Positions 8,156 to 63,067 of a stretch of 64,000 nucleotides of DNA are shown here, piece after piece. Below the pieces are notes generated by a model. The model was not told where the DNA came from and ran no database searches. It saw nothing but the letters and a program-made list of their open reading frames with translations. This DNA is from Desulfococcaceae bacterium (GTDB lineage Bacteria; Desulfobacterota; Desulfobacteria; Desulfobacterales; Desulfosalsimonadaceae), in NCBI GenBank assembly GCA_030145385.1, contig JAQYVU010000007.1, positions 17,930 through 81,929 of the forward strand, read 5' to 3'. A program made the position numbers and the translations under genes. Every line of letters starts with the position of its first letter. Within the stretch, counting starts at the first letter, position 1.

Positions 8156-8264
8156 TTTTCAACCCTCGATTTCCGTTATAATGAATCCATTTAGTGATAT
8201 CGATGACAGAGTAAAAATTCTCGGTAATAACTAACTCAGTCCATGACAGCTTTTAATGATGATA

Positions 8265-18349: not shown

Positions 18350-18411
18350 TTATTTATTATCAAATCGAAACAGCCGTTCGATTAAACCTGAGCCGAAAAG
18401 GACCAAAAAAA

Positions 18412-37418: not shown

Positions 37419-37429
37419 TTTTTCCTCTC

Positions 37430-37813
37430 TTAAAGGGGATAAACCCCATCTTCATCATGGACTTCTTTGCCGGTCAGGGGCGGGTTAAACACACAGATCA
37501 TCCGCATGTCCGAGAAAGCCCGCAGGTAATGCTTCTCATGTCCGTTTAACGCATACATGGTGCCGTCCTTGATTTTAAAGATTTCCCCGGTTTCAATGAC
37601 TTCCAGTTCGCCTTCACCTGCCACACAATAAACCGCCTCCAGATGGTTTTTATACCAAATGAGCGTTGTGGTTCCGGCAAATATCGTGGTGTCATGGAAA
37701 GAAAACCCCATACCGTCTTTTCTCAAAAGCATTCTCCGACTCGCCCATGTCCCGGTTTCCGCGGATATATCATTTTCAGATCCGATAATGTCTTCCAGCA
37801 TTCTTACGATCAT
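37430..37813 (-). CDS. ectC: L-ectoine synthase
   Basis: 127 aa. MIVRMLEDI..W.SRRMLLRKDGMGFSFHDT...YKNHLEAVYCVAGEGE...VFNPPLTGKEVHDEDG is the EctC cupin signature. The start overlaps the ectB stop (TAATG). Confidence 0.92.
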   Translation of the reverse strand: MIVRMLEDIIGSENDISAETGTWASRRMLLRKDGMGFSFHDTTIFAGTTTLIWYKNHLEAVYCVAGEGELEVIETGEIFKIKDGTMYALNGHEKHYLRAFSDMRMICVFNPPLTGKEVHDEDGVYPL

Positions 37814-39087: not shown

Positions 39088-39104
39088 GGATTCCTTCCTA
39101 ATTA

Positions 39105-39629
39105 TTATAAAGTTAAACTGAATTCCTGGCCGATATGAAAAAGAATTTCCGGTTCATGGACATTTTCTCCAAAATGGGCAGCTGAAAAAAATTCTTTTTC
39201 AAACTCAAAAGACGCCTTTAGCTCTCTGGCCACTGCAGTAAACAGTTTAATGGACGCCTGATTGGAAGGGGTAATGGTTGCTTCCAAATGTTTAATATTT
39301 AATATTTTCATATTTTTATACAGAGAAACCAGCATTTGAACGCCTAAGCCCTTTCCTCGGTGTTTTTCATCAACCGCCACCTGCCAGACAAAAATAGTAT
39401 CCGGCGAGTCCGGCGGGATATAAGCAGTGACAAATCCCACAACTTCTCCTTCGTGTTCAGCCACGATACATGTTTTCGCAAAATGACGGCACATGATAAG
39501 ATATTGATATGCTGAATTTAAATCCAGTGTTTTGGATGATTTTGCAATTTCCCAAAAATATTTTCCATCATTGGTTTTCGGATTTCGAAAGATTATACTG
39601 TTTGGCCGTTGACTGTTTTGCGTTTTCAA
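39105..39629 (-). CDS. ectA: L-2,4-diaminobutyrate acetyltransferase
   Basis: 174 aa GNAT (..WQVAVDEKHRGKGLGVQML..), first gene of the ectABC order. Confidence 0.85.
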   Translation of the reverse strand: MKTQNSQRPNSIIFRNPKTNDGKYFWEIAKSSKTLDLNSAYQYLIMCRHFAKTCIVAEHEGEVVGFVTAYIPPDSPDTIFVWQVAVDEKHRGKGLGVQMLVSLYKNMKILNIKHLEATITPSNQASIKLFTAVARELKASFEFEKEFFSAAHFGENVHEPEILFHIGQEFSLTL

Positions 39630-45940: not shown

Positions 45941-46918
45941 GGCATCCTCCTGAAATATTAAATATTGAGTCCAAAACAGGGTTATTTTAAAATATTTTGT
46001 CTTTTATTCCAAGTCAAAAGCCTGGCCTGACCCTATTGTATTCTCATCAACAATAAATTATTATTATTGAATGTTTATTATTTGTATGGATATTTTCTTT
46101 TAAGAATGAGTAAATGTGCGTTTTCCCGGTCGTTTGAAAATCGAAAATATTCTCTACTTTTCTTTGGCGGGCAAAGCAAAGTAGCAAAAGAAACCCGCCC
46201 TGCAGCATGTTCCCTCGATCCGCAGGTTTCCATGGCGGGATCAAAAACTCGATCAATCTTTGGCCCGGAAAGTTTATTTTATTTCTTGTTCACCTTTTTG
46301 CCTCTCAAAGACTTCAGCTTTGCCGCCGCTCAGACAGTTTGCTCCCTTGTCCCATGGAAACCAGCTTCTCTCGGCTATGCTGCAATGGGATTCCTCCGGC
46401 GTTCAAACTGTGGCACAAATGCTGTGAAATAAAAGTGGCATTTTGCAAGGTTGTTGAATTCCCCCTTTTGCTCCTCCGGAACACTGGCAACCAGTTGCCC
46501 GTGCCACCCCAAGACTTTTTGCCCACTCATTTTGCAATTTGCTAACAAAGTCTCTGATCAATACTCTTTGCTATGTATGGATACAAAATAAATGATGAAA
46601 TACTTTGTCGGAGTGCTTGCGCCACTTGAGATCCGTTGGTTTTCAAACGCGCTCTGCGCGGATAAATGGCAAGGAAACTATTTATTTCGTCAAACCCAAA
46701 CCCGGTACGGCAACATAAGAATAATGATAAAAATTGTTCGCCGAAAGGGTTTGCCCATTGCGATGCAGCCCTGAACCGAGGTTTGTGTGGAACAAGGGAG
46801 ACACTGTTTGAGCTGCGTTTACTCCGACAGTGGATTAACAAAAATGATTTGACCGAAGCTTTGGGAAAAGCCCTATCGAGGGCTATTGCCGTCAGCTCTA
46901 AAAATTATGAGACCTCCG

Positions 46919-47239
46919 TTATTCTGTTGAAACTAATTTGAGTCCCACTATTCCGGATACAATGAGAAGCAAACAGACAACCCTGAGGATGTCTCGTGAT
47001 TCACTAAATAGGATCATACCCAATATTGCTACTCCAACCGCACCAACGCCAGTCCATACGGCGTATGCTGTGCCTACTGGAATAGTCTTCATAGCCAATG
47101 ATAATAACCAAACACTAATGACCATACCTGAGACGGTCAGTAATGATGGAATAAGCTTTGTAAATCCAAAAGTATATTTTAATCCAATGGCCCATCCGCA
47201 TTCAAACAAGCCAGCAATTATCAAATAAACCCATGACAT
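46919..47239 (-). CDS. sugE: SMR-family exporter, SugE/Gdx type (guanidinium/quaternary ammonium efflux)
   Basis: 106 aa, four TM helices, [22 protein letters not shown]... with the conserved membrane Glu. GGGAG Shine-Dalgarno upstream. Confidence 0.85.
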
Positions 47240-47269
47240 GTTTCTACTCCCTGACCTGATTTTGTTGCC

Positions 47270-47660
47270 TCATCTCGCGGTAGGAACGCCGGTTACCCGG
47301 CACCCCCCGCACAGACCCGGACGTTCGGTTTTCCCGCATCCGATTCCTCGGTTGTACTCGCTTTCGCGCAAATCATTAGCATTATGTAAATACCCGATGT
47401 CGTTTGGTCGATAGTGGGAGATTGGGTTTAGCAATCCCGAGTCGCTCGATGGCCAATTAATTGCCTTCCAGGCAAAGCTTTTTCGCTTTCCACCTCGTCG
47501 GTTTAGCCATTTGAATGCACTTTCAATCGCCCAACTGTAAAAACGCCATAATGACCTTAAGTTGCCGACCACACTGTAATAATTGTAATGTCCGCGCAGC
47601 CGTCGATTCAACTCCGTTATGAATTTAATCCCCTTTAAAGTAGAAATATGGTAATATCAC
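47270..47660 (-). mobile_element. Group II intron reverse transcriptase/maturase relic (domain X and C-terminal tail only; RT domain missing)
   Basis: ..GIKFITELNRRLRGHYNYYSVVGNLRSLWRFYSWAIESAFKWLNRRGGKRKSF.W.. matches the maturase RGWxNYY region. The tail ..CGKTERPGLCGGCRVTGVPTAR is typical of intron ORF ends. The frame is closed by a TGA near 47668, so only ~130 codons survive. Confidence 0.6.
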
Positions 47661-47904
47661 GCAGTATCTCAGGCATTTGTTTTAATGCCTGTAAATATGT
47701 TTTCAATTTATCTTTCATCTGATGTCTAACTATGCGTAACCGACGCGAGGAGCTTAGTGACAAGCGTTCGGTTTACGCATTTGTTAGTCGAGATATATTA
47801 TTTGTTGTATTTCTTCCTACGTGAGCCTTCATTTCAACCATCACTTAAAGACAATAAGTAACGCAAACGGCGTTTCAATTGGTTTTTTTTCGATACCGCA
47901 GTGA

Positions 47905-48321
47905 CTATTTCTCCTCAATCGAAATCTTGAACTCAACAGTTCCCAACCCTCCCAGTTCGAGACCAGGATCTGTGCATCTAAATCCAGCCATAAAAGCGGT
48001 TATATCACCCTTTTGGTACATGCGATCTAACAACGATGTACTCTTTTCATAAAGTGGCTGAATCGCCCCCAGGCACAAGGGCGCCGTACTCTCCTGTGCG
48101 TTGATCTCTACAGCTCTATCCAACACATACTTCTGCCCAACTTGTAGCCCGGCATAACAATACTTGGAGCTGACCACTTCGGCGACCAATCGATATTTAT
48201 CGACCGCTTCCGTTGCGTTTAAAATAGTCTTTTCCATTTCGGGAGTCACTTTTGCCATATCCTCCTCTGTCATACTGAGAATCTCGACCGCGATTGCCTT
48301 GAGCCCTTCGTCTTTGATCAT
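47905..48321 (-). CDS. Hypothetical protein (possibly TIGR04076-like)
   Basis: 138 aa. ..KYCYAGLQVGQKYVL......APLCLGAIQPL.......FRCTDPGLELGGLGTVEFKISIE weakly recalls the TIGR04076 pattern. Confidence 0.4.
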   Translation of the reverse strand: MIKDEGLKAIAVEILSMTEEDMAKVTPEMEKTILNATEAVDKYRLVAEVVSSKYCYAGLQVGQKYVLDRAVEINAQESTAPLCLGAIQPLYEKSTSLLDRMYQKGDITAFMAGFRCTDPGLELGGLGTVEFKISIEEK

Positions 48322-48741
48322 GTCACGCCTCCTGTTACGGTTTGTTTATGACGACGTTTTATCTAATATATTACGACTAACATTAGTTATTCAACAGACC
48401 GGCTTCTTTTTGTCCAGAAACCGAATATTTTGATAAATTTTGGTAATATTACCAAAAAAGCACCAAATTATCAAAAACATAATAATTTAATGTATATCAA
48501 ATTGTTATTCCGATTTTGGTTTTTTGCTAAAAAATGAACATAGTTCAAATTGGTCGTTTTTTGTTCCAATTAATGCACTTCAAGAGAGAAACCATTGAAT
48601 TTTACTTTTCAATTAACAGCACGAGATTGCATACCATATATTGTGCTTGAGATTTGTTAAAGTACAACCAAATTAGATGATAATGATTTTTATAAATTCA
48701 AGAATGGAGATAAAACCGACAGTATTCCAGATTTTTTTTGA

Positions 48742-48942
48742 TGCGTGGACTATCGATAAAAACAGACAACATTCCCGCAACGGCCGCCAGTGCACATTGT
48801 GATAAACTTTACGGGATTTTTAAAAATCAAACATCCCACATATCGTGGTTGAATTTCCATAATATTCTCGAATCGCAGGTTGAAAATTATCTGACATTTG
48901 TTGGCCTGATCACAACTTTATTGATTTCCGCTACCCCAAGAT
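48742..48942 (+). repeat. Direct repeat, copy 1 (135 bp identical to 59520-59654, plus ~55 bp of diverged extension)
   Basis: 48752-48886 is base-for-base identical to 59520-59654 (checked by eye). Homology resumes at gatcacaactt..atttccg.taccccaagat. Confidence 0.9.
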
Positions 48943-49254
48943 ATGGAAAAATTGCCTTATTGAATAAACCGGCATTAGCACTGAATTCGGTTGGTATGTT
49001 GCACAGATGGCCAGAATTTTACGGCGAGCACAAGCTATTGCAAGATGCAATGAGGAGGAGAGTTTTGATGGTGAGCACTATCTTTGTCTCACCAAAGTTT
49101 TATTTCTTGACATAATCGGAGATTGATTCAACCCGATCTATAGCGCAAAAGTCTTGTTTCAACACAACGTATTGATATTAATTATCATATAGGTAAATAT
49201 TAAACATTATTATCCAGGTGATTCCCTATGTTCAATGCATGCCCTGCCTAAAAA

Positions 49255-50260
49255 CAATATGACATTGACGAACCGCGCAATCCGAATACGACGCCTAACT
49301 TCCAATGCACGTAGATCATTTTGAAGACCTGGAGATGGCTTAGGATAATCGCTACCAAAGTCAGTATGGATTTTTCAGACCTTATGTCCGGGACATGATT
49401 TACCGGTATCTGAACTGCGGGGCCCTGCACCTAAAATTTGCCCGGGTGAGATGCCTTGATTGCGGCCATGAGTATCTTTTGCCGTTTTTCCTGCAAGCGC
49501 CGTCATTTCTGCCCCTCCTGCCACCAGAAAAAAGTCATCGAGTTCGGTGAATGGATGTGCGAGGAGGTCTTGAAACATTTGCCACATCGTCAATGGGAGT
49601 ACTCCATCCCCAAACAGCTTCGCGTATTTAATTGGTCTCTGAAATCAACAGCCTCTATGGGCGTGGATATCTACTATGACCATCGCCTGCTGCTTGCCGA
49701 GCTTTCCCTGTGTGCTTGGAAAGTCTTATCCACATATCTGAAAACCAGTGTGAGATAAGATGACACGATTCCCGGCGGCGTAATCGCGGCCCAGATCTTC
49801 GGCGATTTTCAGAATTTTAATCCCCATCTGCACATTATCGCAACCGATGGCTGTTTTTATGAAAACGGCCTGTCGGCGTGCAACGCACGGACAGGCCTTT
49901 TCATCAAGGGGCCGCAACCCGTTGCAAGGGAGTTGGAGGATTCATTTCGCCGGGAGGTCTTTGCCTGCTCAAAAAAGAGGGAATGATCACCGATCTTGTC
50001 ATCGATAATATGATGTGCCAGCATCACAGCAGCTTCAACGTCTATTGCGACAAGACCCTCTGGCCAGACAATGAAGAGGGACTGGAAAATCTGGCCCGAT
50101 AAATTATCCAGCGTCATTTTCATCCGAGCGGATGACTTATATCCCGGCCTCTGAAACAAAAACCGGGACGGCCAGAGTCATTTATCATTCCAAGAATGAA
50201 CACAGCTTTTGCATTCCTGCCCGAAAGCCATCGCACAATTTTTTCAGAAGAATACAAAAA
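49255..50260 (+). mobile_element. IS91-family (Y2/rolling-circle) transposase pseudogene: multiple frameshifts and stops, 3' truncated
   Basis: The pieces lie in three frames: EPRNPNTTPNFQC / HVDHFEDLEMA*DNRYQSQYGFFRPYVRDMIYRYLNCG..ARVRCLDCGHEYLLPF / SCKRRHFCPSCHQKKVIEFGEW...HRQWEYSIPKQLR / ..PGGVIAAQIFGDFQNFNPHLHIIATDGCFYENG / ..ITDLVIDNMMCQHHSSFNVYCDKTLWPDNEEGLENLAR*. These are the Zn-binding and Y2-transposase motifs of IS91-like elements. Confidence 0.7.
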
Positions 50261-50405
50261 CCGAACGGCAAAATTCAGTACAAAGAAAACTATCGCTTTT
50301 CAGGACAGAAACATTGATATGATTTAAAGCTGAGAGAGTTTTCAGTTCTAATGAAATGAGGATAATGGCAGAAAAAGATAATCAATTCCATTTAAAACCG
50401 CTTTT

Positions 50406-50566
50406 AGGGCCGTGGAAAAAATAAAATATCCCAAATAGCGAAGGATTTTGCTTCCACATTCAAGGCGCGATGAAGCAAACATATCGAGATGCGTATGTTG
50501 CATCGCAACAAAGAAGGCGAAGCAATCGACCCGCAAGATCGCGGCATTTATATTTTTCACAGCCCT
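50406..50566. repeat. Long-hairpin intergenic repeat, subfamily B, copy 2
   Basis: agggccgtggaaaaaataaaatatccca ... gcgaaggattttgcttcc..attcaaggcgcgatgaagc...tcgcaacaaagaaggcgaagcaa ... with a degraded right arm, cggcatttatatttttcacagccct. Confidence 0.75.
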
Positions 50567-50995
50567 TATACCCGCCAAAAGATGAACCAAAGGTCTCAAA
50601 CGCCCCCTTCCGTTAACGTAAGTTTTTTGATTGTTAATAACTTAATCTGGTGCAACAAGAATTTGCATTAATTGCAAGGATGGCAAGTACTGAAAGGATT
50701 GCACACTGGCTTTAATGCTTTTTTTGACTCCGAAAATTTCAAAATTGCGCCACCATTGGAGAAAGATTACAGACTAATATTCATATTTTTTGATGGTTAA
50801 CTTAACTCGCCCCTTTTCGTTCCCTGCACGTTCCGTGTTCGCCCAAATATTACATATTTGTAATGATGCAAGTGCAAACTTACAATTCTGTATTTTATTT
50901 TCAAATCCCACAATGTGGCAGCTAAAGTATAATACGGAAAATAACCCAATGGATTTTAAGATTATTGTAAAAAAGAGATCACATCGATGGGTTTA

Positions 50996-51011
50996 TGGCA
51001 TGCAAAATGCA
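50996..51011 (+). promoter_or_regulatory. Sigma-54-like -24/-12 element (also part of a palindrome) upstream of the ABC/eut operon
   Basis: TGGCATGCAAAATGCA has GG and GC at the canonical 12-nt register and lies 117 nt before the ATG at 51128. It is also the palindrome CATGCAaaaTGCATG, so it could equally be an operator. Confidence 0.3.
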
Positions 51012-51127
51012 TGTTGCTTAATACGTAGCGCTTGCATGGCGCATCACCGAGAAAAAATAACCCATACCCCAAAAAAGCAACCCATATCCTGGACAAGGAT
51101 ATGGGATGAAGAGGAAAGGATTTAAAA

Positions 51128-52105
51128 ATGAAAAGGAAAGAATGTAAGATAAAAAGACGTTGTACTCACTTTTGGCTGTGGATGCTTCTTGCGGCAATGA
51201 TATTCTCACCGGCTTCCGCCCTTTGCGGATCTGTGGAGTCAAATGACCCGATCAAAATCACCCTGCACGACTGGAGCGGTCAGCTGATCACCAGCCATCT
51301 GATGGGAGATATTCTGGAATCCATGGGGTATCGTATCAAATATGTCACTGCCGATTATATTGCCCAGTTCGCCGGACTAGAATCCGGAGATCTGCACCTG
51401 GCGATGGAAATCTGGGAAACCACCGGCAAGCAGGCGATGCTCAAATCCCTGGCAACCGGAAAGACGGAAGACCTCGGCGAAACCGGTTTGTTTGCCAAGG
51501 AAGAGTGGTGGTATCCGGCTTACATGAAGGAACAGTGCCCGGATCTCCCGGACTGGAAAGCACTCAACAAATATGTCAAGGTTTTTGCGGCACCCGAAAC
51601 CGCCCCCAAAGGGCGCTACCTCTGCGCACCGGTGACATGGGGCGGCTTCGACGAGGAGCGGGTCAAGGCGCTCGGCCTTGATTACGAAGTGGTCCATGCC
51701 GGCACAGACGCGGCACTGTTTGCCGAACTCACCTCCGCCTACCAGCGAAAAGCCCCGATCCTCCTGTGGGTTTACACGCCGCATTGGGTCCCCATCAAAT
51801 ATAAAGGCGAATGGATCCAGTTTCCGAAATATACCGATGAATGCTACGAGGATCCGACCTGGGGCGGCAATCCCGAAATGACTCATGACTGCGGCAAACC
51901 GGAAGGATGGATCAAAAAAGTTGCCTGGGCCGGCCTCAAAGATAAATGGCCCGGAGCCTACAAAGCGATCAAGGCGTTCCATATCGAAAATAAAGAGATG
52001 GGAGAAATGATCGCCAGAATCGATCTGGACGGAGAAAAACTGGAAGATGTCGTTGCGGACTATTTGAAAACACACGAAGCTGTCTGGAAGGAATGGATCA
52101 AATAA
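51128..52105 (+). CDS. ABC transporter substrate-binding protein, glycine betaine/choline (ProX/OpuAC) type
   Basis: 325 aa with a signal peptide (..WLWMLLAAMIFSPASALC). The Trp-rich segments (EIWETTG, EEWWYPAYM, LLWVYTPHW) are typical of quaternary-amine binding proteins. Confidence 0.75.
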   Translation: MKRKECKIKRRCTHFWLWMLLAAMIFSPASALCGSVESNDPIKITLHDWSGQLITSHLMGDILESMGYRIKYVTADYIAQFAGLESGDLHLAMEIWETTGKQAMLKSLATGKTEDLGETGLFAKEEWWYPAYMKEQCPDLPDWKALNKYVKVFAAPETAPKGRYLCAPVTWGGFDEERVKALGLDYEVVHAGTDAALFAELTSAYQRKAPILLWVYTPHWVPIKYKGEWIQFPKYTDECYEDPTWGGNPEMTHDCGKPEGWIKKVAWAGLKDKWPGAYKAIKAFHIENKEMGEMIARIDLDGEKLEDVVADYLKTHEAVWKEWIK

Positions 52106-53184
52106 TCATGATCGCTCCCAAAACAGAAAAATTGACCCCTGGCACCGTGAAGCTGGCCTGTCGCAATGTATGGAAGCTCTTCGGGAAACATCCGGAGCGC
52201 TTCCTGGCCGCTCACGACAATCGCCCGACCTACGAGCAAATCCGGGAAGCCTACTATATCGGGGCTACCCGGGATGTATCTCTGGAAATCTATGAAGGAG
52301 AGATTTTTGTCATCATGGGATTATCCGGATCCGGGAAATCCACGCTGGTACGGAACATGACGCGGTTGATCGAACCCACTGCCGGTGAGATTATCTTCGA
52401 CGGCATGGACCTTCTCAAAGCCGATGAGAAAACCCTCATCGACATCCGCCGGAAAAAAATGGGCATGGTATTCCAGAATTTCGGCCTCCTGCCCCACCGC
52501 AATGTTCTTGACAATGTGGCCTTTCCGTTAGAGGTCCAGGGCATGGCACGATTTGCCCGTGAAGAAGAGGCCGAGCAGATGATTGAACTGGTGGGTCTCA
52601 AAGGCCGGGAATATTATTTCCCCAGGGAACTCTCCGGCGGAGAGCAGCAGCGGGTCGGCATTGCCAGGTCGCTGGCGGTCGCCCCGGAGGTCTGGTTCCT
52701 GGACGAACCCTTTTCGGCCTTAGATCCCCTGATCCGCGCGGAGATGCAGGATGAATTCTTAAGGCTTCAAAAAGTTCTCCACAAAACCATCGTTTTCATC
52801 ACCCATGATTTCGACGAGGCCATCCGGCTGGCGGACCGTATCGCCATCATGAAAAATGGAGAAATCGTCCAGGTCGGTACCCCGGAAACCCTGCTCCTGC
52901 ATCCGGCCGACGCATACGTTTCAGAATTCACACAAAAGGTTCCCCGGGCAAAGGTCGTGTCGGCCGCCTCCGTCATGACGCCTTTAGACAGCGCTTCACC
53001 CATTCCGCCAACCGTCTCCCCGGTCGCTGCAGACACGAAAATCGATGCACTCATCGGTCGATTCATCAATCAGCAGGAGCCCATACCTGTGGTCGACGCG
53101 TCGGAACGGATTATCGGAGAGATCAGCATGCAAAATGCGCTCAGGGTCTTTATCGGAGAGGAGGCTGCAACCCATGGGTGCTAA
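52093..53184 (+). CDS. ABC transporter ATP-binding protein, ProV/OpuAA type with a C-terminal CBS-like tail
   Basis: 363 aa with Walker A GLSGSGKST, signature LSGGEQQRVGIARSL and Walker B WFLDEPFSALD. It overlaps the upstream gene by 13 nt (alternative start at 52108). Confidence 0.85.
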   Translation: MDQIIMIAPKTEKLTPGTVKLACRNVWKLFGKHPERFLAAHDNRPTYEQIREAYYIGATRDVSLEIYEGEIFVIMGLSGSGKSTLVRNMTRLIEPTAGEIIFDGMDLLKADEKTLIDIRRKKMGMVFQNFGLLPHRNVLDNVAFPLEVQGMARFAREEEAEQMIELVGLKGREYYFPRELSGGEQQRVGIARSLAVAPEVWFLDEPFSALDPLIRAEMQDEFLRLQKVLHKTIVFITHDFDEAIRLADRIAIMKNGEIVQVGTPETLLLHPADAYVSEFTQKVPRAKVVSAASVMTPLDSASPIPPTVSPVAADTKIDALIGRFINQQEPIPVVDASERIIGEISMQNALRVFIGEEAATHGC

Positions 53185-55312
53185 TGAGATATGCTCATTT
53201 GCCGGATTTTACAAAACCCCACCGGTCCCCTTTGCGCCCATAAGCTGCCCCGCAGCAGAACCGGACGCGGAATCGATAGAGGAGATGGTGGAGATGGAAC
53301 CGGTGGACCGGAGCGCCCCCCTGATACGGGCCTGGCGCCGAATCTGGTCAGAGTTGAAATCGGCCCCCGTCACCCGTTGGATCTGGGTGGCGGTACTCAT
53401 GACCTGGGTGACGACCCGTTTCATTGATCCGCCCTGGATGGCGGTCTACCCGGAAGACTGGGTACTGCCCTTCAAAGACCTGTTGAATCGTCTCATGGAC
53501 TGGCTGATCAACGATCTCAGTTTCGGGGTTTTCACATTCAAAGAAATGACCCGATCTGTGGCCTGGCTGCTCGAATGGCCCATGACATGGGCACTGGGGA
53601 TCTTTGCCACCGGCGTCGATATTGCGACGGGCGGTGGCCAGATGCTGCATATCCCCCACCTGCCCTGGATTGCTGTCGTGGGCGTGGCTGCCATCCTCGG
53701 GCATGCCGGCAAAGGGTGGAACCTTGCCCTTCTGGCCGGATCGGCGTTTCTCTATCTGGCCGTGTTCGGTCAATGGGAAAGCGCCATGATGACCCTGGCC
53801 GCCATATTGATTTCCGTTGCCATCGGAGCCCTGGTCGGGCTGGCCATCGGCATCGTTACCGCCGGGAGCCGCCGGATCGAGGCATGGGTCCTGCCATTGC
53901 TGGATCTCATGCAGACGGTGCCGGTGTTCGCCTACCTGATCCCGATTCTCTTTTTGTTCGGCTTCGGGCCGGTTTCCGCCATGATTGCCACCATCATCTA
54001 TGCCACCCCCCCCATGGTCCGCTGTACCATGCTGGGGTTGCGTGCAACACCCCCCGAAATTATTGAATCCGGACAGATGATCGGCTGCACCCGCCGCCAG
54101 CTCCTGTGGAAAGTCAAAATACCGGCAGCCATGTCGGAATTGATGGTCGGCCTGAATCAGGTCATCATGCTCTCCCTGAACATGGTCATCATCGCCTCCA
54201 TGATCGGTGCCGGCGGCCTGGGGTACGATGTTCTCGCAGCCCTTCGACGCCTGAAGATCGGTGCCGGACTGGAGTCTGGGATCGCCATCGTCGTCATGGC
54301 CATTGCGCTGGATCGCCTCAGCCAGGCCTTCGCATGCAAAGCACCTGTCAATCTGCGTGACGCGACGTTTCTCAAACGTCACGCCCATTCCCTTCTGGCC
54401 GTCGCCGTTATCCTGGGCGGCTATGCGCTGGGAATGATATTCCCGGTGCTGATGAACTACCCCGAGACCTGGGAGGTGACCACCGGCCCCTTCTGGGACG
54501 GAATGATCAAATTTATCAACATCAACTGTTATGATCAGCTCGAATGGATCCGCAGCGGTCTTCTACTGACACTGCTCATGCCGTTCAAACGATTTTTAAT
54601 CGGACTGCCCTGGCTGGGGGTGATCATGGCGCTGGGGCTTGTTGCCTATCGGTTGAAGGGGTTTAAGCTTGCGGGCCTGGTGGTGGCGCTGGCCGGATTT
54701 ATCGCGGTCACCGGGTTCTGGGAAAAAGCCATGATTACCGTTTACCTGTGCGGCATCGGCGTTATGCTTTCCACTGTCATTGGTCTGATTATCGGCGTCT
54801 GGGCCGCCAAGAGCAATTCCATGTCGCGCGTGATAAATATCATTTTAGACACCCTCCAGACGCTGCCGTCCTTTGTCTATCTCATGCCGGTGGTGATGCT
54901 GTTTCGCGTGGGCGATGTATCGGCCCTAATCGCCATCGTTGCTTATGCCGTGGTTCCCGCCATTCGCTATACCGTGCACGGCATATTGAACGTCCCCGCA
55001 ACCGTGCGGGAAGCAGCCGTTGTTTCGGGGTGCACCCCATATCAAACTTTCTGGAAGGTCGAGTTGCCGCTGGCCCTTCCGGATATCATGCTGGGCATCA
55101 ACCAGACAGTCATGCTGGCCCTTTCGATGGTCGTCATTACCGCCCTGGTCGGCACCCGGGATTTGGGCCAGGAGGTCTACATCGCCCTGACACGGGCGGA
55201 TAACGGGCTGGGATTGACCGCCGGACTGGGCGTTGCATTCATCGCGACCATTACCGACCGGCTGATTCAGGCATGGACCGAATCGCGACGATCGCACCTG
55301 GGAGCCGCATGA
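53174..55312 (+). CDS. ABC transporter permease, tandem fusion of two ProW-type transmembrane domains
   Basis: I start it at MGANEICSF (ATG 53174, GGAGAGGAGG 9 nt upstream, overlapping the proV-like stop). It has two copies of the permease core (..MQTVPVFAYLIPILFLFG.. and ..LQTLPSFVYLMPVVMLF..), 712 aa in all. Confidence 0.8.
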   Translation: MGANEICSFAGFYKTPPVPFAPISCPAAEPDAESIEEMVEMEPVDRSAPLIRAWRRIWSELKSAPVTRWIWVAVLMTWVTTRFIDPPWMAVYPEDWVLPFKDLLNRLMDWLINDLSFGVFTFKEMTRSVAWLLEWPMTWALGIFATGVDIATGGGQMLHIPHLPWIAVVGVAAILGHAGKGWNLALLAGSAFLYLAVFGQWESAMMTLAAILISVAIGALVGLAIGIVTAGSRRIEAWVLPLLDLMQTVPVFAYLIPILFLFGFGPVSAMIATIIYATPPMVRCTMLGLRATPPEIIESGQMIGCTRRQLLWKVKIPAAMSELMVGLNQVIMLSLNMVIIASMIGAGGLGYDVLAALRRLKIGAGLESGIAIVVMAIALDRLSQAFACKAPVNLRDATFLKRHAHSLLAVAVILGGYALGMIFPVLMNYPETWEVTTGPFWDGMIKFININCYDQLEWIRSGLLLTLLMPFKRFLIGLPWLGVIMALGLVAYRLKGFKLAGLVVALAGFIAVTGFWEKAMITVYLCGIGVMLSTVIGLIIGVWAAKSNSMSRVINIILDTLQTLPSFVYLMPVVMLFRVGDVSALIAIVAYAVVPAIRYTVHGILNVPATVREAAVVSGCTPYQTFWKVELPLALPDIMLGINQTVMLALSMVVITALVGTRDLGQEVYIALTRADNGLGLTAGLGVAFIATITDRLIQAWTESRRSHLGAA

Positions 55313-56859
55313 CCGGCCCCGTCCAGACGCCAGGCATATCCGCGTGTTCGAGCGACGGGCGGGTTTTCCGCCCGTCGGCGCGCTCGGTCACCCTGCTTGG
55401 ATTTGATTTCGGATCGACGACCAGCAGCGCTGTGGCCGCCCGTTTGCGGGTCGGCAGGCATCGATTTTCCGGTGAGGTCTCCCTCGAACGGCCCAAAATC
55501 ATCTACCGGTCGAAAACCGTTTTTACGCCCTTCACCGGTGACGATCTGGACCTTCCCGCCTTGCGTCGCATTATCCGGGGATGGATGACCGACGGGCGAC
55601 TTGAAATTGACGACATATTCTCCGGGGGTGCCATTGTCACGGGCCTGGCAGCCACCCGGCGCAACGCCGACAAGCTGACGGCCCTGGTACATGAGTATGC
55701 GGGAGAATCACTGATTGCAACGGCTGATGATCCGGCCCTGGAATCCTGGCTGGCATTTATGGGCAGCTGCTATGGCATGTCCCGGAGCCGCCCCCGGCGA
55801 CCGGTGCTTAACCTGGATATCGGGGGAGGGACCACCAATGCGGCCCTGGGATTAAACGGGGATATTCTGTCCACCGGATGCGCGTTTATCGGGGCCCGCC
55901 ACTTTCGCTTTTCGCCGGGAACCTACCGGCTGACAGGCATTTCTTCCTTTGGAGAAAGACTCCTGCGTCAACTGGATATAGATATCACACCGGGAGATAT
56001 TGTGGCGGCCGATGCACGGGATCGTCTCCTGGAGTTGATGATCCGGTATCTTGAAGAGATTGCCACCGGGCAGCGGGACCTGGCAGAAGACTCCCGATTC
56101 GCGTTTATCGAGCAGTTGCCCCTGAACGTTCCCGAAACAGCTCATGATCCGATGATAACATTCTCCGGCGGTGTCGGCGCCCTTGTCTACAGGGCAGCCC
56201 TGGGTGAACCGATGCCCGGGATTACCGCATTCGGGGATCTGGGAATCGACCTGGCCCGGCGGATCGCCTCCTCTCCGATTCTCTCCAAAAACCTCTTGAG
56301 CTGCATGCCCGAGAGCAGGGGACATGCCACCGTTTACGGACTGGCGCTGCATCACACGGAAATTTCGGGCACAACGCTGTTTCTCCCGGCCCCCCAGTTG
56401 CTGCCGCTAAAGGATTTGCCGGTGGTGGCCCGGCTGAAAATTGACGACAAAGAGAGCAGAATTTCCCATGGGCTGAAGATGGTCCGAAAGTGTCAGACCG
56501 GCGGCGCCATTCAGGTGAACGGCACACCCGGCCGCTCTGAAAGCCGTCAGGCAGTTGAGTGCTTTCGGCGGTTTGGCCGGCTGCTGGGTGCGCTGATGAA
56601 GGAAGCGGACTGGCCTGAGGATCGCCCGGTGGTACTGCTCATGAACAGCAATTGCGGAAAAACCGTGGGCAACTATGCCACCGGCTGGAAACAATACGCC
56701 CTGCCCCTTCTGGTCTTAGACGAGATCCCCGATCGGGACACCCAGTTTGTAACCATTGGCAGGAAAAAGGGTGCATTGGTGCCGGTCTCTTTTTTCGGGA
56801 TGCATCATGCGGCGTCCCGTTCAAACATCAGAATCACCAACACGCAGGACACGTGTTGA
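55309..56859 (+). CDS. eutA: Ethanolamine ammonia-lyase reactivating factor EutA
   Basis: Preferred start is MTGPVQ (ATG 55309), which overlaps the permease TGA as ATGA. ..LLGFDFGSTTSSAVAARL.. and ..LNLDIGGGTTNAAL.. are the ASKHA/EutA phosphate-binding motifs. Confidence 0.75.
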   Translation: MTGPVQTPGISACSSDGRVFRPSARSVTLLGFDFGSTTSSAVAARLRVGRHRFSGEVSLERPKIIYRSKTVFTPFTGDDLDLPALRRIIRGWMTDGRLEIDDIFSGGAIVTGLAATRRNADKLTALVHEYAGESLIATADDPALESWLAFMGSCYGMSRSRPRRPVLNLDIGGGTTNAALGLNGDILSTGCAFIGARHFRFSPGTYRLTGISSFGERLLRQLDIDITPGDIVAADARDRLLELMIRYLEEIATGQRDLAEDSRFAFIEQLPLNVPETAHDPMITFSGGVGALVYRAALGEPMPGITAFGDLGIDLARRIASSPILSKNLLSCMPESRGHATVYGLALHHTEISGTTLFLPAPQLLPLKDLPVVARLKIDDKESRISHGLKMVRKCQTGGAIQVNGTPGRSESRQAVECFRRFGRLLGALMKEADWPEDRPVVLLMNSNCGKTVGNYATGWKQYALPLLVLDEIPDRDTQFVTIGRKKGALVPVSFFGMHHAASRSNIRITNTQDTC

Positions 56860-56887
56860 AAAACATATAGAAAAAAAAGGATTTATT

Positions 56888-59095
56888 TTGAAACCACTGA
56901 CCCCCATTGCAGATATCCGGATACCTGCACCGCAACCCGACATGGACTACACCACCCGTATCATGGGCAGGACCTTTACTTTTCACGGCCTCAAGCGCCT
57001 CCTGGGAGCTGCGGACTACGGCAAAGCCGGAGACCGTTCCGCCGGACTCTCGGCCGCCAGTGAAACCGAACGCGAGGCAGCCCGCTCCCTGATGTCGTCT
57101 CTGACGCTGGAGCATTTATTCGACCATCCCCTGACCGACGAGGAGGGTCGAACGGATTCCGTCATGCGGGTTAACTATGCCATCGACGCGACCGCATTTG
57201 ATGAAATTCGACGCATGACCTTAGGGACGCTCAAAGACCACCTGATGCGGCAGCCGGGCGATGTCATCAAGCGGATCGGCAGTGGATTGACCGGCCCCAT
57301 GGCGGCCGCGCTGACCAAACTCATGGATGTCCATGAGCTGATCCTGCTGTCAAAAAAAATTGAAACGCCGACCCGGGCCCGCACCCGGATCGGGCAGCAG
57401 GGCACCCTTTGCTCAAGGCTTCAGCCGAATCATCCGACCGATCACCTGGACGGACTGACCCTGCTGACCTATACAGGACTGTCCCTGGGAACCGGAGACT
57501 GCCTCATCGGCGTCAATCCGGCCGAGGATACGGTTCAGAACATTTCAGCCATACTGGGGCAGCTCGATGCCATCCGCCGTGAAACGGGCGCGCCGACCCA
57601 GATCTGTGTACTGGGCCACATCAAGACGCAGATCAGCTGCCTGGAACAGGGGGCACCTGTCGAGATTCTGTTCCAGAGCCTTGCCGGTACCGATCGCACC
57701 CTGGTTGAGGAATTCGACGTTACCGTCGATTATCTTGACTTTGCCTACGACACGATGGACCGGATCGGGCCGCTTCGCGGGCAGGCAGACCAGATGATGT
57801 ATTTCGAAACCGGCCAGGGCAGCGAGGTCAGCTACGGCAAGCATAACAATATCGACATGGCGACCTGTGAGGCTTTGTGTTACGGGCTTGCCCGACGTTA
57901 CGATCCGTTTATGGTCAACAATGTCACCGGGTTCATCGGTCCGGAAACCCACAATGACAACATGGAGATGATCCTGTCCAACCTTCAGGACCATTTCATG
58001 GGGAAATTGATGGGACTGCCCATGGGCATGGCGCCCTGCTATACGCTTCACTCCGGAATTACGGTCGAGGGGCAGCAGATCGCAACGGAACTTTTGACAG
58101 CCGCCGGGGCCAATTATTACATGGATGTCTATCTGAATAGCGATCGAATGCTGGCCTATTTCGATACCAGCGGCCATGATGACCAGACACTCAGGGAAAT
58201 TTACGGCCGCAGCCCGGCTCCCGAATATGCCGAATGGGCCGTCTCCAAAGGGATCTTTGCCCGCTCGCCGGCGGGTGGTTTTTGCCGCGGCCCGCATTGG
58301 GGCGATCCGTCCATCTTCTGTTCTTCCGAAATGGAATTCCAGTCTCTTTCGGAGTCGCTGCCGGCTGCCTACGGCTTTGAAAATGCCGGCCCCCGTCCGG
58401 CCAATGACGTCTCCCGAACGTCACGATTTAACCAGGCGGCAGCACGCAACGCCATATACAGCGATCTCGATCCTGAACAACTCAAAATCCATGACCTTGA
58501 ACCGGATCGTTTCAAATGGGTCGCCACCCTGGCGGACAGTCGGAAAGTCCATCTGAACAATCCGGAGCGGGGAACCCGTCTGTCCGCGCAAAGTGCGGCG
58601 GACCTGAAAACCGATTGCTCCAAAGACGTTCAGATCGTCATTTCCGACGGTCTCAGCGCTGATGCCATTCACCACAACATACCGCAGCTGCTTCCCGTTC
58701 TTTTAGACGGGCTGGAGAGCCGCGATCTTCGCGTCGGAAAAATAATCGTTGCCCCTTTCGGCAGAGTAAAGCTGGTCGAAAGCATCGCACAGGAAGTCAA
58801 TCCGCGACTGGTGATTATGCTGATAGGCGAACGGCCGGGCGGTGACGCCCAGGCATCCAAGAGCATGTCCGCCTATATTATGTTTCCCGGTGAAACGAAA
58901 AATGACGCATCACTTCCGGAAGAATCCGGTGTGCAGGCGGACGCATACGAATATACCGTTATATCGAATATCTATAACCGGGGCATCCCTCCGCTGGAGG
59001 CCGGAAGCCTTATTGCCGAAAAAGCCCTTGAGATTCTCAAACATCAAGCGGCCGGAAACAGGCTGGAGGAAATTTTGAAATCGGCTGCCGGATGA
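56888..59095 (+). CDS. eutB: Ethanolamine ammonia-lyase, fused large (EutB) and small (EutC) subunits in one polypeptide
   Basis: EutB part: ..RLQPNHPTD..GDCLIGVNPAED..MYFETGQGSE..VNNVTGFIGPE..CYTLHS... EutC part: ..DVQIVISDGLSADAI....RVKLVESIAQEV..LVIMLIGERPGG... The start is uncertain: TTG 56888 has an AAGGA Shine-Dalgarno, and ATG 56942 (MDYTTRIMGRTFTFHGL) fits the homologous N-terminus. The track start at 56756 overlaps eutA and is unlikely. Confidence 0.85.
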   Translation: MKPLTPIADIRIPAPQPDMDYTTRIMGRTFTFHGLKRLLGAADYGKAGDRSAGLSAASETEREAARSLMSSLTLEHLFDHPLTDEEGRTDSVMRVNYAIDATAFDEIRRMTLGTLKDHLMRQPGDVIKRIGSGLTGPMAAALTKLMDVHELILLSKKIETPTRARTRIGQQGTLCSRLQPNHPTDHLDGLTLLTYTGLSLGTGDCLIGVNPAEDTVQNISAILGQLDAIRRETGAPTQICVLGHIKTQISCLEQGAPVEILFQSLAGTDRTLVEEFDVTVDYLDFAYDTMDRIGPLRGQADQMMYFETGQGSEVSYGKHNNIDMATCEALCYGLARRYDPFMVNNVTGFIGPETHNDNMEMILSNLQDHFMGKLMGLPMGMAPCYTLHSGITVEGQQIATELLTAAGANYYMDVYLNSDRMLAYFDTSGHDDQTLREIYGRSPAPEYAEWAVSKGIFARSPAGGFCRGPHWGDPSIFCSSEMEFQSLSESLPAAYGFENAGPRPANDVSRTSRFNQAAARNAIYSDLDPEQLKIHDLEPDRFKWVATLADSRKVHLNNPERGTRLSAQSAADLKTDCSKDVQIVISDGLSADAIHHNIPQLLPVLLDGLESRDLRVGKIIVAPFGRVKLVESIAQEVNPRLVIMLIGERPGGDAQASKSMSAYIMFPGETKNDASLPEESGVQADAYEYTVISNIYNRGIPPLEAGSLIAEKALEILKHQAAGNRLEEILKSAAG

Positions 59096-59176
59096 TGATC
59101 TTCGGGCGTGGTGGTTGCTTGCCAGGAAATCTCCGGCGACGGTTCCAGCGCGAATTCTATCTGGTCCAATCAGGAT

Positions 59177-59208
59177 CATCCTCTTCTGGTGGAGGATGGG
59201 CTTTTTTT
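59177..59208 (+). terminator. Rho-independent terminator of the ABC/eut operon
   Basis: CATCCTCttctggtgGAGGATGggcttttttt, ~80 nt after the eutBC stop. Confidence 0.65.
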
Positions 59209-59511
59209 ACCCCCTTGGTTTTTGCAATCATGCCGGAGATCGGACAGTCAGAAAGCCGATCGGGTCGATACTGGCGAAGCATAGAGGCATTTATGTCAAG
59301 ATGTGGCAGATAATCCCAATTGCATGAATCCTGCAAAGGGTCTGCCTTTAGTGAATCCTTATAAATCCTTTTCGGACCAATTCATAGTTTGAATTTTATG
59401 AATATTTATTCCAAAAATAGCCGTTATCCGGTCTTAAACCCTACATTAAAATTGAAATAATAATGACCTAAGATTGTTTCAAAATGACAGTATTTCAGAA
59501 AATCTCGAAGG

Positions 59512-59710
59512 TGCGTAATATCGATAAAAACAGACAACATTCCCGCAACGGCCGCCAGTGCACATTGTGATAAACTTTACGGGATTTTTAAAAATCAAAC
59601 ATCCCACATATCGTGGTTGAATTTCCATAATATTCTCGAATCGCAGGTTGAAAACGCCCTGTCTTTTTCTGTGTGATCACAACTTTTAGATATTTCCGTT
59701 ACCCCAAGAT
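59512..59710 (+). repeat. Direct repeat, copy 2 (see 48742-48942)
   Basis: 59520-59654 is identical to 48752-48886, with flanking partial homology. Confidence 0.9.
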
Positions 59711-60441
59711 GTTGTGTAATCTGCAAATTTAATAAAACAGACAGCGGTGCCTACAGTTATCGATAGTCTACGCTTTTTGCAACTTTTGCAATACTGTTGG
59801 AACTCGTTGGATTCTTTACCGTGGATCAGAATTTCTGGTATGTCCGGAATCATGATCCGCCGGTCAAAATAAATGAGCAAGTCCGCGAGTTGACGTATGA
59901 CGATTCATATGCTCAATCCTCATTTGAAGATTTCCGGGCGCAATAAATTGTGAACCGGCAGAGGACTGGTGCCGCCAAAATCGGTGAAAATGGCACGGGA
60001 TTTCAGAATTTTTCAGGCATCATCTATTGATCCGACATAACCGACCGCTCCTCCTAAAGCCACTCCCGAACACGCCACAACATAAAATACCTGTTAAAAC
60101 TTGACATACAAGACGATTTTTGAGATATATCAAGTCGTAAAAAACTTTTCATGGTGTCGCGTCACCACTGTATCAGAAAATAAATCATCCATCATTTCAA
60201 CTGATTGGAGAGATGACTTATTTGGAAGCAATATCTTATTCCTTATTTCTTTTATTCCTAAAAATTAGGCCGGATCATGTTCATCTTTTAGTTGAAACAG
60301 ATCCGAAATAATAACTGGTCCGAAATCATTGTTATCTAAATGGCATGATTTGAAATCGGTTTTGCGATTGTTGAATAAATGACGATTCAGTGACCTATAG
60401 AAATTAAAACAAATGATTGATAATGGGAATAGAAATAGAAC

Positions 60442-61723: not shown

Positions 61724-63067
61724 ATGAAAAAAAAATTATTATTAATAAATCCGGCTCAAAGCAAAAAACCAAATCTGGCCAATCTGATCACAATTCCATC
61801 ATCAAGTTTAGGGTACCTGGCTGCACTGACGCCTCCCGATTGGGATATAAAAATTAATGATGAAAATATTGAGGATTTAACTTTTGAGGAGGCTGATCTT
61901 GTCGCTATAACTACCTACACCTGTAATGCGCCCAGAGCATATGAAGTATCTAAGATTTACAGGCGAAAAGGAATAAAAACAGTTATTGGCGGCGTGCATG
62001 TCTCAATGCTGCCAGATGAAGCCGCACAGTATGTTGATACGGTTGTTATAGGTGAGGCAGAATCAATATGGGGAACTGTATTAAAGGATTTTGAGAAAAA
62101 TGAAATGAAAAAGCGGTACACGTCAGAACTTATTTCTCTGGAAAATCAAGTTCTCCCCAGAACGGATCTCTACTCCTGGAAATATAAATTGTTTACAGTG
62201 GAAACTTCCAGAGGCTGCCCCAATGATTGTGAGTTCTGTACTGTAGGGTTATTTAATGGGCACAAGTACAGACAAAGACCTGTTGAAGATGTATTGGATG
62301 AACTGGAAAACCTACCCCGCAAGTTTTTCATGTTTTCAGATAACAATATTCTTGGTCATGGAAAAAAGGCAGAAGAAAGAGCGATTCGTTTGTTTAAAGG
62401 CATGGTTGACAGAGGAATAAAAAAACGATGGGGATGTTACGTTGGAATTGATTTTGTAAACAATCCGGAAGTTTTAAAATGGGCTAAAAAAGCCGGCTGC
62501 TCAAGCTGTTTCATCGGTTTTGAATCCCTCAACGAAGAATCACTTAAAGAAATCCAGAAAACCAGAAATTTAAAAATGGGTGTGGATCATTATAAAGAGG
62601 TTGTACAAAAAATTCATGACAACGGCATTGGACTTATAATTGGATCATTTGTTATGGGTAATGATAATGATTATCCGGATATTTTTCAGAGAACAACGGA
62701 TTTTATTTTAGAGTCAAAGATAGATACGGCACAACTCTCAATTCTAAACCCTTTTCCGGGTACAAGACTATTTGAAAGACTTGAGAAGGAAGGAAGACTG
62801 TTATACACAAATTATCCTCACGATTGGCAGTATTTGGATTTCACAAAAGTTTTATATAAACCGAAGAACATGACACCTGATCAGCTGCGTGAAGGCGTTG
62901 CCCAGGTTTACAAAGACACTTCATCAAGATTAACATCGCTGAAAAGAGCAATTACGTCATACAAAGATACGAAAGATCTGTTGGGAGCAATTATTGCCTA
63001 CTTTGGTAATCGCTCTTCCGGTGACCTGTGGCGTAAAGTATCTGATGCCGTTGAGTTAGAAAATTAG
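61724..63067 (+). CDS. B12-binding-domain radical SAM protein (class B)
   Basis: 447 aa. N-terminal Rossmann-like B12 domain (..DLVAITTYTCNAPRAYEV...IGGVHVS..) followed by ETSRGCPNDCEFCTV (CxxxCxxC). Confidence 0.85.
   Translation: MKKKLLLINPAQSKKPNLANLITIPSSSLGYLAALTPPDWDIKINDENIEDLTFEEADLVAITTYTCNAPRAYEVSKIYRRKGIKTVIGGVHVSMLPDEAAQYVDTVVIGEAESIWGTVLKDFEKNEMKKRYTSELISLENQVLPRTDLYSWKYKLFTVETSRGCPNDCEFCTVGLFNGHKYRQRPVEDVLDELENLPRKFFMFSDNNILGHGKKAEERAIRLFKGMVDRGIKKRWGCYVGIDFVNNPEVLKWAKKAGCSSCFIGFESLNEESLKEIQKTRNLKMGVDHYKEVVQKIHDNGIGLIIGSFVMGNDNDYPDIFQRTTDFILESKIDTAQLSILNPFPGTRLFERLEKEGRLLYTNYPHDWQYLDFTKVLYKPKNMTPDQLREGVAQVYKDTSSRLTSLKRAITSYKDTKDLLGAIIAYFGNRSSGDLWRKVSDAVELEN

Follow-up and report, generated by a model that had tools for sequence, protein, structure and literature searches.

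How does an adenosylcobalamin (AdoCbl)-dependent ammonia-lyase receive its substrate, and what is that substrate, when the genes beside it encode an ATP-binding cassette (ABC) importer of the betaine/choline type? The question is raised by a five-gene cassette in the stretch of Desulfococcaceae DNA analysed here (the window, 64,000 nt; all plain coordinates refer to it), where such an importer is followed by EutA and a fused EutB-EutC (EutBC). The cassette is compared with loci from genome and metagenome scans, labelled L001, L174 and so on; the frequencies given below come from samples of such loci, not from a census. Judged from its sequence and gene context, with a probability of roughly 0.55, it would be a mobile, sigma-54-driven 'short eut' cassette that imports ethanolamine or a very close 2-aminoethanol derivative.

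Organization of the five-gene cassette

The operon (51128-59095, plus strand) consists of five co-directional genes that overlap or nearly abut:

51128-52105, plus strand: TmoX-related periplasmic substrate-binding protein (Pfam OpuAC, E 1.9e-47)
52093-53184, plus strand: ABC ATPase of the ProV/betaine-choline family (NCBIfam TIGR01186)
53174-55312, plus strand: fused double permease of 712 aa with two ProW/ChoW-like halves (two BPD_transp_1 domains; TIGR03416)
55309-56859, plus strand: EutA-type reactivating factor (Pfam EutA, full length, E 9.4e-62)
56888 (TTG) or 56942 (ATG) to 59095, plus strand: fused EutB-EutC of the AdoCbl-dependent ethanolamine-ammonia-lyase family (Pfam EutB and EutC)

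Pfam E-values across the five genes range from 1e-33 to 1e-136, and all five reading frames are intact. The binding-protein and ATPase genes overlap by 13 nt, the ATPase and permease genes by 11 nt, and the permease and EutA genes share an ATGA; between EutA and EutBC lies a 28-nt gap with a GGA-rich ribosome-binding site, counted to the TTG start at 56888. The open reading frame (ORF) calls agree with the coordinates and with all four junctions given in the first-pass annotation, made from the sequence alone, and its base counts of 42/60 G+C at 55321-55380 and 22/60 at 61741-61800 are reproduced exactly. The G+C content of the operon is 56.8%, against 43.5-44.6% in the rest of the window, with 61-73% at third codon positions.

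No microcompartment accompanies the lyase. A tblastn search of the window with EutM yields no bacterial microcompartment (BMC) shell homolog (best E 6.5), EutH is absent from the entire window, and no eutE-, eutG- or eutD-type gene is found among the ~45 larger window ORFs scanned with Pfam. In these searches, neither the shell genes nor the eutE/eutD/eutG/eutT set that define a long (microcompartment) eut locus are found. Nor does an Eat permease (APC family) or EutH adjoin eutBC as in short eut loci; the transport genes present are OpuAC, ABC_tran and BPD_transp_1. The window searches with EutM and EutH and the Pfam scans thus bear out the earlier statement that the operon has neither microcompartment nor EutH/Eat genes. 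Its view that the transporter is unlike those of known eut loci also stands, whereas the missing microcompartment is not special, since short eut operons are established.

The fused lyase and its active site

Within one chain, the lyase contains the EutB (PF06751, E 5.4e-136) and EutC (PF05985, E 2.6e-49) domains that define EutBC. An AlphaFold2 (AF2) model of the fusion has a predicted local distance difference test (pLDDT) score of 79, and Foldseek aligns it with 3ABO_A and 3ABO_B, the large and small subunits of Escherichia coli ethanolamine ammonia-lyase (EAL), at TM scores of 0.91 and 0.75. More than 7,400 relatives are present in the database at E <= 1e-20, and all 120 best matches are fusions of ~730 aa. 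Only five clusters reach at least 75% identity, at least four of them with ABC genes; the matches at 66% identity or less come from Pseudomonas, Thalassolituus, Burkholderiales, Planctomycetes, Polyangia and many metagenomes. At 50% clustering the fused clade collapses to essentially one full-length representative. In most of the fused-clade loci examined, EutBC follows immediately on a EutA gene; the ABC genes have no such regular place.

The residues of E. coli EutB that we take to bind the substrate or to act in catalysis are R160, Q162, N193, E287 and D362. Compared with characterised EAL, the first four are kept, and they are invariant in 121 fused-clade sequences; the active site is not identical, however, as position 362 is Ala in 120 of the 121, always together with Asp at 406. 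The other invariant positions of the clade are M361, P363, L367, D393, V394, R400, A403, F405 and D406. Across the EutB homologs of loci L001-L086, for which 60 eutB loci form the canonical comparison set, positions 362 and 406 covary: D362 is always accompanied by T, S or C at 406, and A362 always by D406. A Firmicute group shares this A362/D406 pair; BMC shell genes are present in its loci L029, L033, L045, L049 and L050 and absent from L024, and L029 and L049 carry EutH as well. In the simplest reading of this pattern, the substrate-binding carboxylate would have moved along the chain from position 362 to 406, which is compatible with ethanolamine. The loss of D362 as proof of a new substrate was rejected, because A362 pairs with D406 and the same pair is present in the BMC/EutH Firmicute loci.

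The importer and its ligand pocket

The binding protein had been called ProX-like, a label that proves too loose. Its scores of 46.5 bits against a cut-off of 215 for ProX and 35.5 against 379 for ChoX reach neither equivalog, and the nearest solved structure is PDB 4XZ6 (E 1.7e-76), which is TmoX, the trimethylamine N-oxide (TMAO)-binding protein of Ruegeria pomeroyi (PMC8918994). The ATPase attains the cut-off of the generic proV subfamily (TIGR01186, 341.6 against 326.6 bits). The double permease, whose subfamily homologs measure 667-712 aa, passes that of the ChoW model (TIGR03416, 363 bits) only when the scores of both halves are added (421.7 bits).

In TmoX, the TMAO pocket is formed by W55, W102, F106, E131, W177, F220 and W222, and the protein also binds choline with a Kd of 2.5 uM (PMC8918994). 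Mapped on TmoX, the window protein presents W49-W96-G100-E125-W171-W214-Y216. Four of the seven pocket residues are identical (those at W55, W102, E131 and W177), and the full TMAO pocket is not reproduced: the changes are F106G, F220W and W222Y, with GA replaced by TT at positions 104-105. The resulting signature, W-W-G-E-W-W-Y, is identical in 124 of 124 homologs examined (64-100% identity). By these residues the binding protein is assigned to a distinct, uncharacterised subfamily related to TmoX. Because the pocket signature is the same in all 124 homologs, the subfamily probably binds one ligand, likely one with a cationic head group, in a pocket somewhat larger and more polar than that for TMAO.

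The subfamily is common in marine Alpha- and Gammaproteobacteria, and one cluster at 90% identity contains 935 sequences. Its gene neighbourhoods were counted in 80 metagenomic loci, of which 40 extend at least 1 kb beyond the permease. In 38 of these 40 the importer is accompanied by choline-kinase-superfamily kinases and/or a DAO-FAO_M-GCV_T (dimethylglycine-dehydrogenase-like) gene; one has EutA-EutBC (L094, a close relative of the window operon), and one has neither partner set. This distribution indicates that, as far as gene neighbourhoods tell, an importer common in marine bacteria has in rare cases recombined with the lyase. The kinases match GntI (N-oxide kinase) best in NCBIfam, below its cut-off, and an S-adenosylmethionine (SAM) methyltransferase is often present in the importer-kinase loci. 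Full-length Tdm or Tmm is absent from 81 importer-subfamily loci, where only ~31% matches to the GCV_T part of the dimethylglycine-dehydrogenase-like gene appear.

The marine operon headed by this subfamily is conserved and apparently uncharacterised, and runs in the order binding protein, ProV, double ProW, choline-kinase/APH kinase, DAO-FAO_M-GCV_T gene, second kinase and sometimes a SAM methyltransferase (L121 10001-18271, L147, L161, L108, L092 and ~35 more). Its Arenicellales versions add an MttB homolog and a PatB-like C-S lyase.

Genomic context and the substrate of the lyase

In a Planctomycete locus (L008), EutA and fused EutBC are followed 166 nt downstream, on the same strand, by EutH (PF04346, E 4e-120), and this EutBC carries the same active-site signature as the window enzyme. 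In the Burkholderiales locus L091, eutA-eutBC adjoins a set of glutamine synthetase-like, Fe-alcohol dehydrogenase (ADH), C26-hydrolase and aldehyde dehydrogenase (ALDH) genes, which by analogy resembles gamma-glutamyl amino-alcohol pathways; an FGGY kinase and DAO-type oxidases lie upstream. Fe-/Zn-ADH or ALDH genes also stand beside the lyase in L003, L016, L087, L089 and L090, consistent with an acetaldehyde product. The weighing of substrates assumes a single one for the whole fused clade, because the clade is tight and its signature invariant. Since EutH lies beside a fused-clade ortholog and the A362/D406 pair occurs in BMC/EutH loci, ethanolamine appears the most likely substrate. Of the two possibilities raised at the outset, a new ethanolamine uptake route is favoured by these same observations. 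Action on methylated ethanolamines is weakened, while retaining support from the Trp-rich aromatic box, the demethylase-like partners of the importer and one Pseudomonas locus, described below.

Several findings weigh against the ethanolamine reading. EutH is present in only 1 of ~17 fused-clade loci. The lyase domains and the reactivase score below the NCBIfam cut-offs (EutB 440.6 against 554 bits, EutC 142 against 230, EutA 160.9 against 598), EutA below every EutA equivalog cut-off. The invariant substitutions N367L, G393D, I400R, N403A and Q405F lie beside the active site, and in the same region, at residues 395-413, the pLDDT of the AF2 model falls below 50. The binding protein retains the four-Trp and Tyr aromatic box and the Glu of TmoX, and in OpuAC-type proteins a box of this kind usually goes with quaternary or methylated ammonium ligands rather than with primary amines. 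The kinase and demethylase-like partners that accompany the importer in nearly all of the 40 loci hint at an N-methylated ligand. Literature searches returned no characterised member of either the binding-protein subfamily or the fused EutBC clade.

In an alternative that is unlikely, the cassette would import choline or N-methyl- or N,N-dimethylethanolamine and the fused EutBC would be an AdoCbl lyase releasing tri-, di- or monomethylamine together with acetaldehyde. On this reading, about as unlikely, the enzyme would be a B12-dependent, glycyl-radical-independent counterpart of CutC, with the W-W-G-E-W-W-Y binding proteins as dedicated importers. The pocket keeps its aromatic box, is enlarged by F106G and gains two Thr, and TmoX proteins bind choline. 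Elsewhere the importer is linked to the DAO-FAO_M-GCV_T gene, to choline-kinase-superfamily kinases and sometimes to a SAM methyltransferase and an MttB homolog. Around the substrate site of the lyase, the polar residues N367, N403 and Q405 are invariantly replaced by L, A and F, and in two Planctomycete loci a TIGR00907-like 'amino acid/choline' permease gene lies upstream of eutA. The same speculation was made in the 2012 genome paper on Pelobacter carbinolicus (PMC3543383).

The Pseudomonas locus belongs to P. cuatrocienegasensis (L003, 1-22211), in which a methyl-accepting chemotaxis protein with SBP_bac_3, eutA, fused eutBC and an aldehyde dehydrogenase gene stand between tmm-tdm-amt and dmmABC-like genes. 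The tmm-tdm and dmmABC genes serve the catabolism of trimethylamine, TMAO and dimethylamine. This neighbourhood favours a methylated substrate, but it is found in only 1 of ~17 loci; a general link of the fused clade to tmm/tdm/dmm genes was rejected, as the 16 other loci do not show it. Also arguing against methylated substrates are L008, where EutH comes next after a fused-clade gene that bears this signature, the likely compensation of D362A by T406D, a pair that recurs in BMC loci of which two have EutH, and the Burkholderiales context, which points to a primary amino alcohol. The biochemistry of a B12-dependent choline or methylethanolamine lyase is absent from the literature searched.

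Improbable to a greater degree is another small primary amino alcohol as substrate, such as 1-amino-2-propanol, 2-amino-1-propanol or 3-amino-1,2-propanediol. The surroundings of the active site are divergent, an FGGY kinase and DAO-type oxidases lie upstream in L091, and E. coli EAL has been solved with 2-amino-1-propanol (PDB 5YSR), so the fold takes such analogues. Propanolamines, however, have no specific contextual signal, the ADH/ALDH genes downstream and EutH fit ethanolamine, and the aromatic box favours a cationic head group rather than a longer chain.

Promoter, terminator and regulatory elements

Three elements frame the operon or precede its first gene:

50996-51012, plus strand: putative sigma-54-type (-24/-12) promoter TGGCATGCAAAATGCAT (pattern match)
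51081-51105, unstranded: perfect 9-bp inverted repeat CCCATATCC-N7-GGATATGGG, between promoter and start codon
59176-59208, plus strand: intrinsic-terminator-like hairpin (59176-59199) and T-run (terminator scan)

TGGCAT-N6-TGCWT matches the 64 kb at 2 sites, where 0.18 would be expected, and the same sigma-54-type element also precedes the gene for the binding protein in L001/L002, L087 and L094. The start of the locus in the first-pass annotation, 50996, coincides with this element. The inverted repeat lies 23 nt before the first start codon, is also flagged as a minus-strand hairpin by the terminator scan and is not conserved in L001 (Desulfospira) or L087; it could be an operator or a hairpin of the 5' untranslated region. 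The terminator-like hairpin, 81 nt past the EutBC stop codon, has a 9-bp stem and a 6-nt loop followed by GCTTTTTTTA; GCTTTTTTT stands directly 3' of the hairpin at 59176-59199. With the overlapping frames, the single promoter-like site and the single terminator-like hairpin, the five genes would form one transcription unit from promoter region to terminator, as had been proposed. A cobalamin riboswitch, or any other Rfam family, is not detected anywhere in the window.

The cassette itself encodes no enhancer-binding protein (EBP). One GAF-type EBP gene is present in the window at a distance of 33 kb; a second EBP gene is located 4 kb from the L089 copy of the cassette. In Pseudomonas aeruginosa, EatR is a sigma-54 enhancer-binding protein that controls the short eut operon.

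The second window match to the sigma-54-type pattern, TGGCATTTCTCTTGCTT (18334-18350, plus strand), is situated just downstream of the GAF-sigma54-HTH EBP gene (16513-18012) and upstream of a 183-aa ORF (18412-18963) without a Pfam family.

Mobility of the cassette and its copies elsewhere

The operon is flanked by repeats and by the remnant of a transposase, and its limits can be traced by comparison with L174:

48713-48899, plus strand: upstream copy of a 187-nt direct repeat, 89% identical to 59481-59667 (repeat search)
59481-59667, plus strand: downstream copy of the 187-nt direct repeat (repeat search)
49395-50206, plus strand: frameshifted IS91-family (Zn-finger and Y2) transposase remnant (Pfam; alignment to the L174 Y2_Tnp fragment)
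50845-59106, plus strand: segment shared with L174, comprising the promoter region and the five genes (blastn, 88.3% identity over 8268 nt)

The direct repeats bracket a 10.8-kb segment that contains the IS91 remnant and the operon. The two copies agree fully over a 136-nt core (48752-48887), and a 53-nt core probe finds 2 matches in the window, against 0 expected. Candidate explanations for the repeat are an element end, a duplicated target or a small repeat family. In addition, 48716-48759 matches 59757-59800 in inverted orientation, more weakly and over 44 nt. In the transposase remnant, two adjacent frames cover successive parts of Pfam Zn_Tnp_IS91, with E 0.004 and 2.7e-5 and in both cases short of the gathering score, and the Y2_Tnp fragment beside the L174 operon aligns to 49959-50206 across the frameshift (41-59% identity, E 3e-13).

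The homology with L174 ends 11 nt past the stop codon on one side and ~280 nt before the first gene on the other, and the flanks are unrelated. In L174, which belongs to a 5.77-Mb genome, EutBC is ~92% identical in amino acid sequence and a Y2_Tnp fragment follows the cassette. Cassette and Y2_Tnp fragment lie there between a 507-aa fragment of a molybdopterin oxidoreductase and its complete 937-aa paralog on the same strand (L174 7760-9283 and 20735-20957); this arrangement suggests an insertion with partial duplication of the target gene. The adjacent Y2 transposase and the differing insertion contexts are those of an IS91/ISCR-type cassette, although its oriIS and terIS ends were not identified. 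The window contains no tRNA genes that could serve as integration sites.

Further copies are found in a marine metagenome contig (L087/L094; 90% nucleotide identity to the operon, EutBC 91% in amino acids), in L088 (~76%, EutBC 79%; the contig begins inside the binding-protein gene), in Desulfospira joergensenii (L001; 72-78%, EutBC 76%) and in L089 (69-73%, EutBC 75%), a truncated contig that shows only EutA, EutBC and the end of the permease gene. The survey of neighbourhoods proposed at the outset finds the ABC-eutA-eutBC arrangement to be rare: among the sampled loci it is confined to the window and five close relatives, in the same order, and the flanks of all six copies are unrelated. 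In comparisons with L174, L087 and L001, the ratio of non-synonymous to synonymous divergence (dN/dS) is 0.06-0.29 for all five genes, and within each comparison the synonymous divergence (dS) is similar among them, which indicates that they diverged as one unit. The five-gene unit is conserved under purifying selection. In the relatives with higher G+C the composition of the operon is closer to that of the host, which suggests that the window host acquired it from a higher-G+C relative. The foreign composition recognised in the first-pass annotation (56.8% against ~44% G+C) is thus joined by flanking repeats, IS91 remnants and five copies in differing contexts, and a foreign origin of the operon is well supported.

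That the two halves are independent, an osmoprotectant or TMAO importer lying beside a lyase, or the cassette being a decaying passenger of a mobile element, is very improbable: IS91 remnants and repeats do flank the cassette, and a host that makes ectoine (ectABC, 35991-39629) lives at high osmolarity, but the frames overlap at three junctions and are all intact, the operon has one promoter-like site and one terminator, and the five-gene order is kept in six sequences at 70-90% nucleotide identity with low dN/dS and matching dS.

Upstream of the operon, 46000-51000 is a gene-poor, decayed stretch, whose only contents are, on the minus strand, an SMR efflux gene (46919-47239) and a 138-aa ORF without a Pfam family (47905-48321), and the transposase fragments. 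The ORF at 47270-47611 (minus strand) was considered as the tail of a group II intron maturase, for which Pfam gave no confirmation.

Proposed mechanism

In the preferred model, an enhancer-binding protein encoded outside the cassette would activate the sigma-54 promoter; it may respond to nitrogen, or to acetaldehyde or an amino alcohol. The TmoX-related binding protein, the ProV-type ATPase and the double ProW-type permease would then provide high-affinity uptake of the amino alcohol from the periplasm. In the cytoplasm, without a microcompartment, the fused EutBC with AdoCbl is predicted to split the amino alcohol into acetaldehyde and ammonia, while EutA would re-activate EutBC after cofactor damage. 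Acetaldehyde would be oxidised or reduced by housekeeping enzymes encoded elsewhere. The cassette may chiefly be a module for scavenging nitrogen and carbon; a role in nitrogen scavenging would agree with high-affinity uptake, with a sigma-54 promoter and with the absence of genes for carbon processing.

Other features of the window

An ectoine biosynthesis operon occupies 35991-39629 on the minus strand:

39105-39629, minus strand: GNAT EctA-like protein
37813-39087, minus strand: EctB, whose homologs are named diaminobutyrate transaminase
37430-37813, minus strand: EctC-like ORF of 127 aa
35991-37418, minus strand: aspartokinase

The window EctB is 87-97% identical to proteins of Desulfobacteraceae and of Desulfobacterales metagenome-assembled genomes, which assigns the window to an uncultured bacterium of the Desulfobacterales type, and the operon indicates a halophilic or marine host. 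At the left end, a single minus-strand ORF of at least 2,719 codons (2-8158, G+C ~53%) runs off the window; its product is probably a very large surface or repeat protein. None of the overlapping ORFs on the plus strand matches a Pfam family.

Comparison with known systems and significance

Reviews list only Eat and EutH as transporters of eut loci (PMC5821096), and the TRAP system EtoX is a further ethanolamine transporter (PMC10132767). Short eut operons without a microcompartment are represented by PA4022-eat-eutB-eutC of P. aeruginosa with its regulator EatR (PMC5821096) and by eutBC of Acinetobacter baumannii (PMC9426561). Like these, the window cassette combines a transporter with an AdoCbl lyase, has no shell genes and no eutE/D/G, and is predicted here to carry out catalysis in the cytoplasm. 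Unlike them, it encodes a three-component OpuAC/TmoX-type ABC importer in place of the APC permease Eat; its EutB and EutC are fused, EutA is present, and the operon encodes neither a regulator nor an aldehyde dehydrogenase. The cassette is moreover mobile and its host an anaerobe of the Desulfobacterales type.

With TmoXWV of R. pomeroyi and SAR11, the importer shares the three-gene architecture, the double permease, a homologous binding protein and the fold class. It differs invariantly, throughout its subfamily, at three pocket residues and in the change of GA to TT, and in the loci examined the subfamily never lies beside tdm/tmm; its partners are instead kinases and the demethylase-like enzyme, or EutA-EutBC. 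Compared with EutBC of E. coli, Salmonella and Listeria (3ABO, 2QEZ), the lyase retains the fold, R160/Q162/N193/E287 and the EutA reactivase. It is ~37% identical to the canonical enzyme, whose subunits are separate and housed in a microcompartment, and D362, T406, N367, G393, N403 and Q405 of canonical EutB are replaced in the fused clade by A, D, L, D, A and F. CutC/CutD, the choline trimethylamine-lyase, cleaves a C-N bond of a 2-aminoethanol derivative to yield acetaldehyde and an amine in anaerobes, and would be relevant only if choline or an N-methylated ethanolamine were the substrate; it is a glycyl radical enzyme, unrelated to EutBC in fold and cofactor, and a cutC-like gene is absent from the window.

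In P. carbinolicus, the fused eutBC1 and eutBC2 adjoin genes for periplasmic binding and membrane proteins, and one copy is the speculated choline lyase (PMC3543383). At the level of published description, the likeness extends to fused EutBC near binding proteins in an anaerobic deltaproteobacterium, whereas that locus is reported without eutA and its neighbouring transport genes are described differently (PMC3543383). Fused EutBC, noted there in 2012, and the lack of shell genes are already known. The novelty lies in the importer type, whose subfamily is defined here, in the way A362 covaries with D406, and in the five-gene cassette being both mobile and restricted in its distribution; an importer of this type is unprecedented for a eut locus.

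If choline or N-methylated ethanolamines proved to be the substrate, the clade, which is widespread in marine bacteria and sediment sulfate reducers, would constitute an oxygen-tolerant, B12-dependent source of methylamines, the precursors of methane and marine aerosols. In conclusion, if the ethanolamine reading is true, the cassette would represent a fourth type of ethanolamine uptake, an OpuAC/TmoX-family ABC importer beside Eat, EutH and EtoX, and would offer the first hint at what a large, uncharacterised subfamily of binding proteins does. In ocean metagenomes, the turnover of dissolved organic nitrogen is followed through transporters of this family, so a wrong 'glycine betaine' or 'TMAO' label matters. 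The operon also demonstrates the movement of a complete uptake-plus-lyase module among sediment Desulfobacterales on IS91-type elements.

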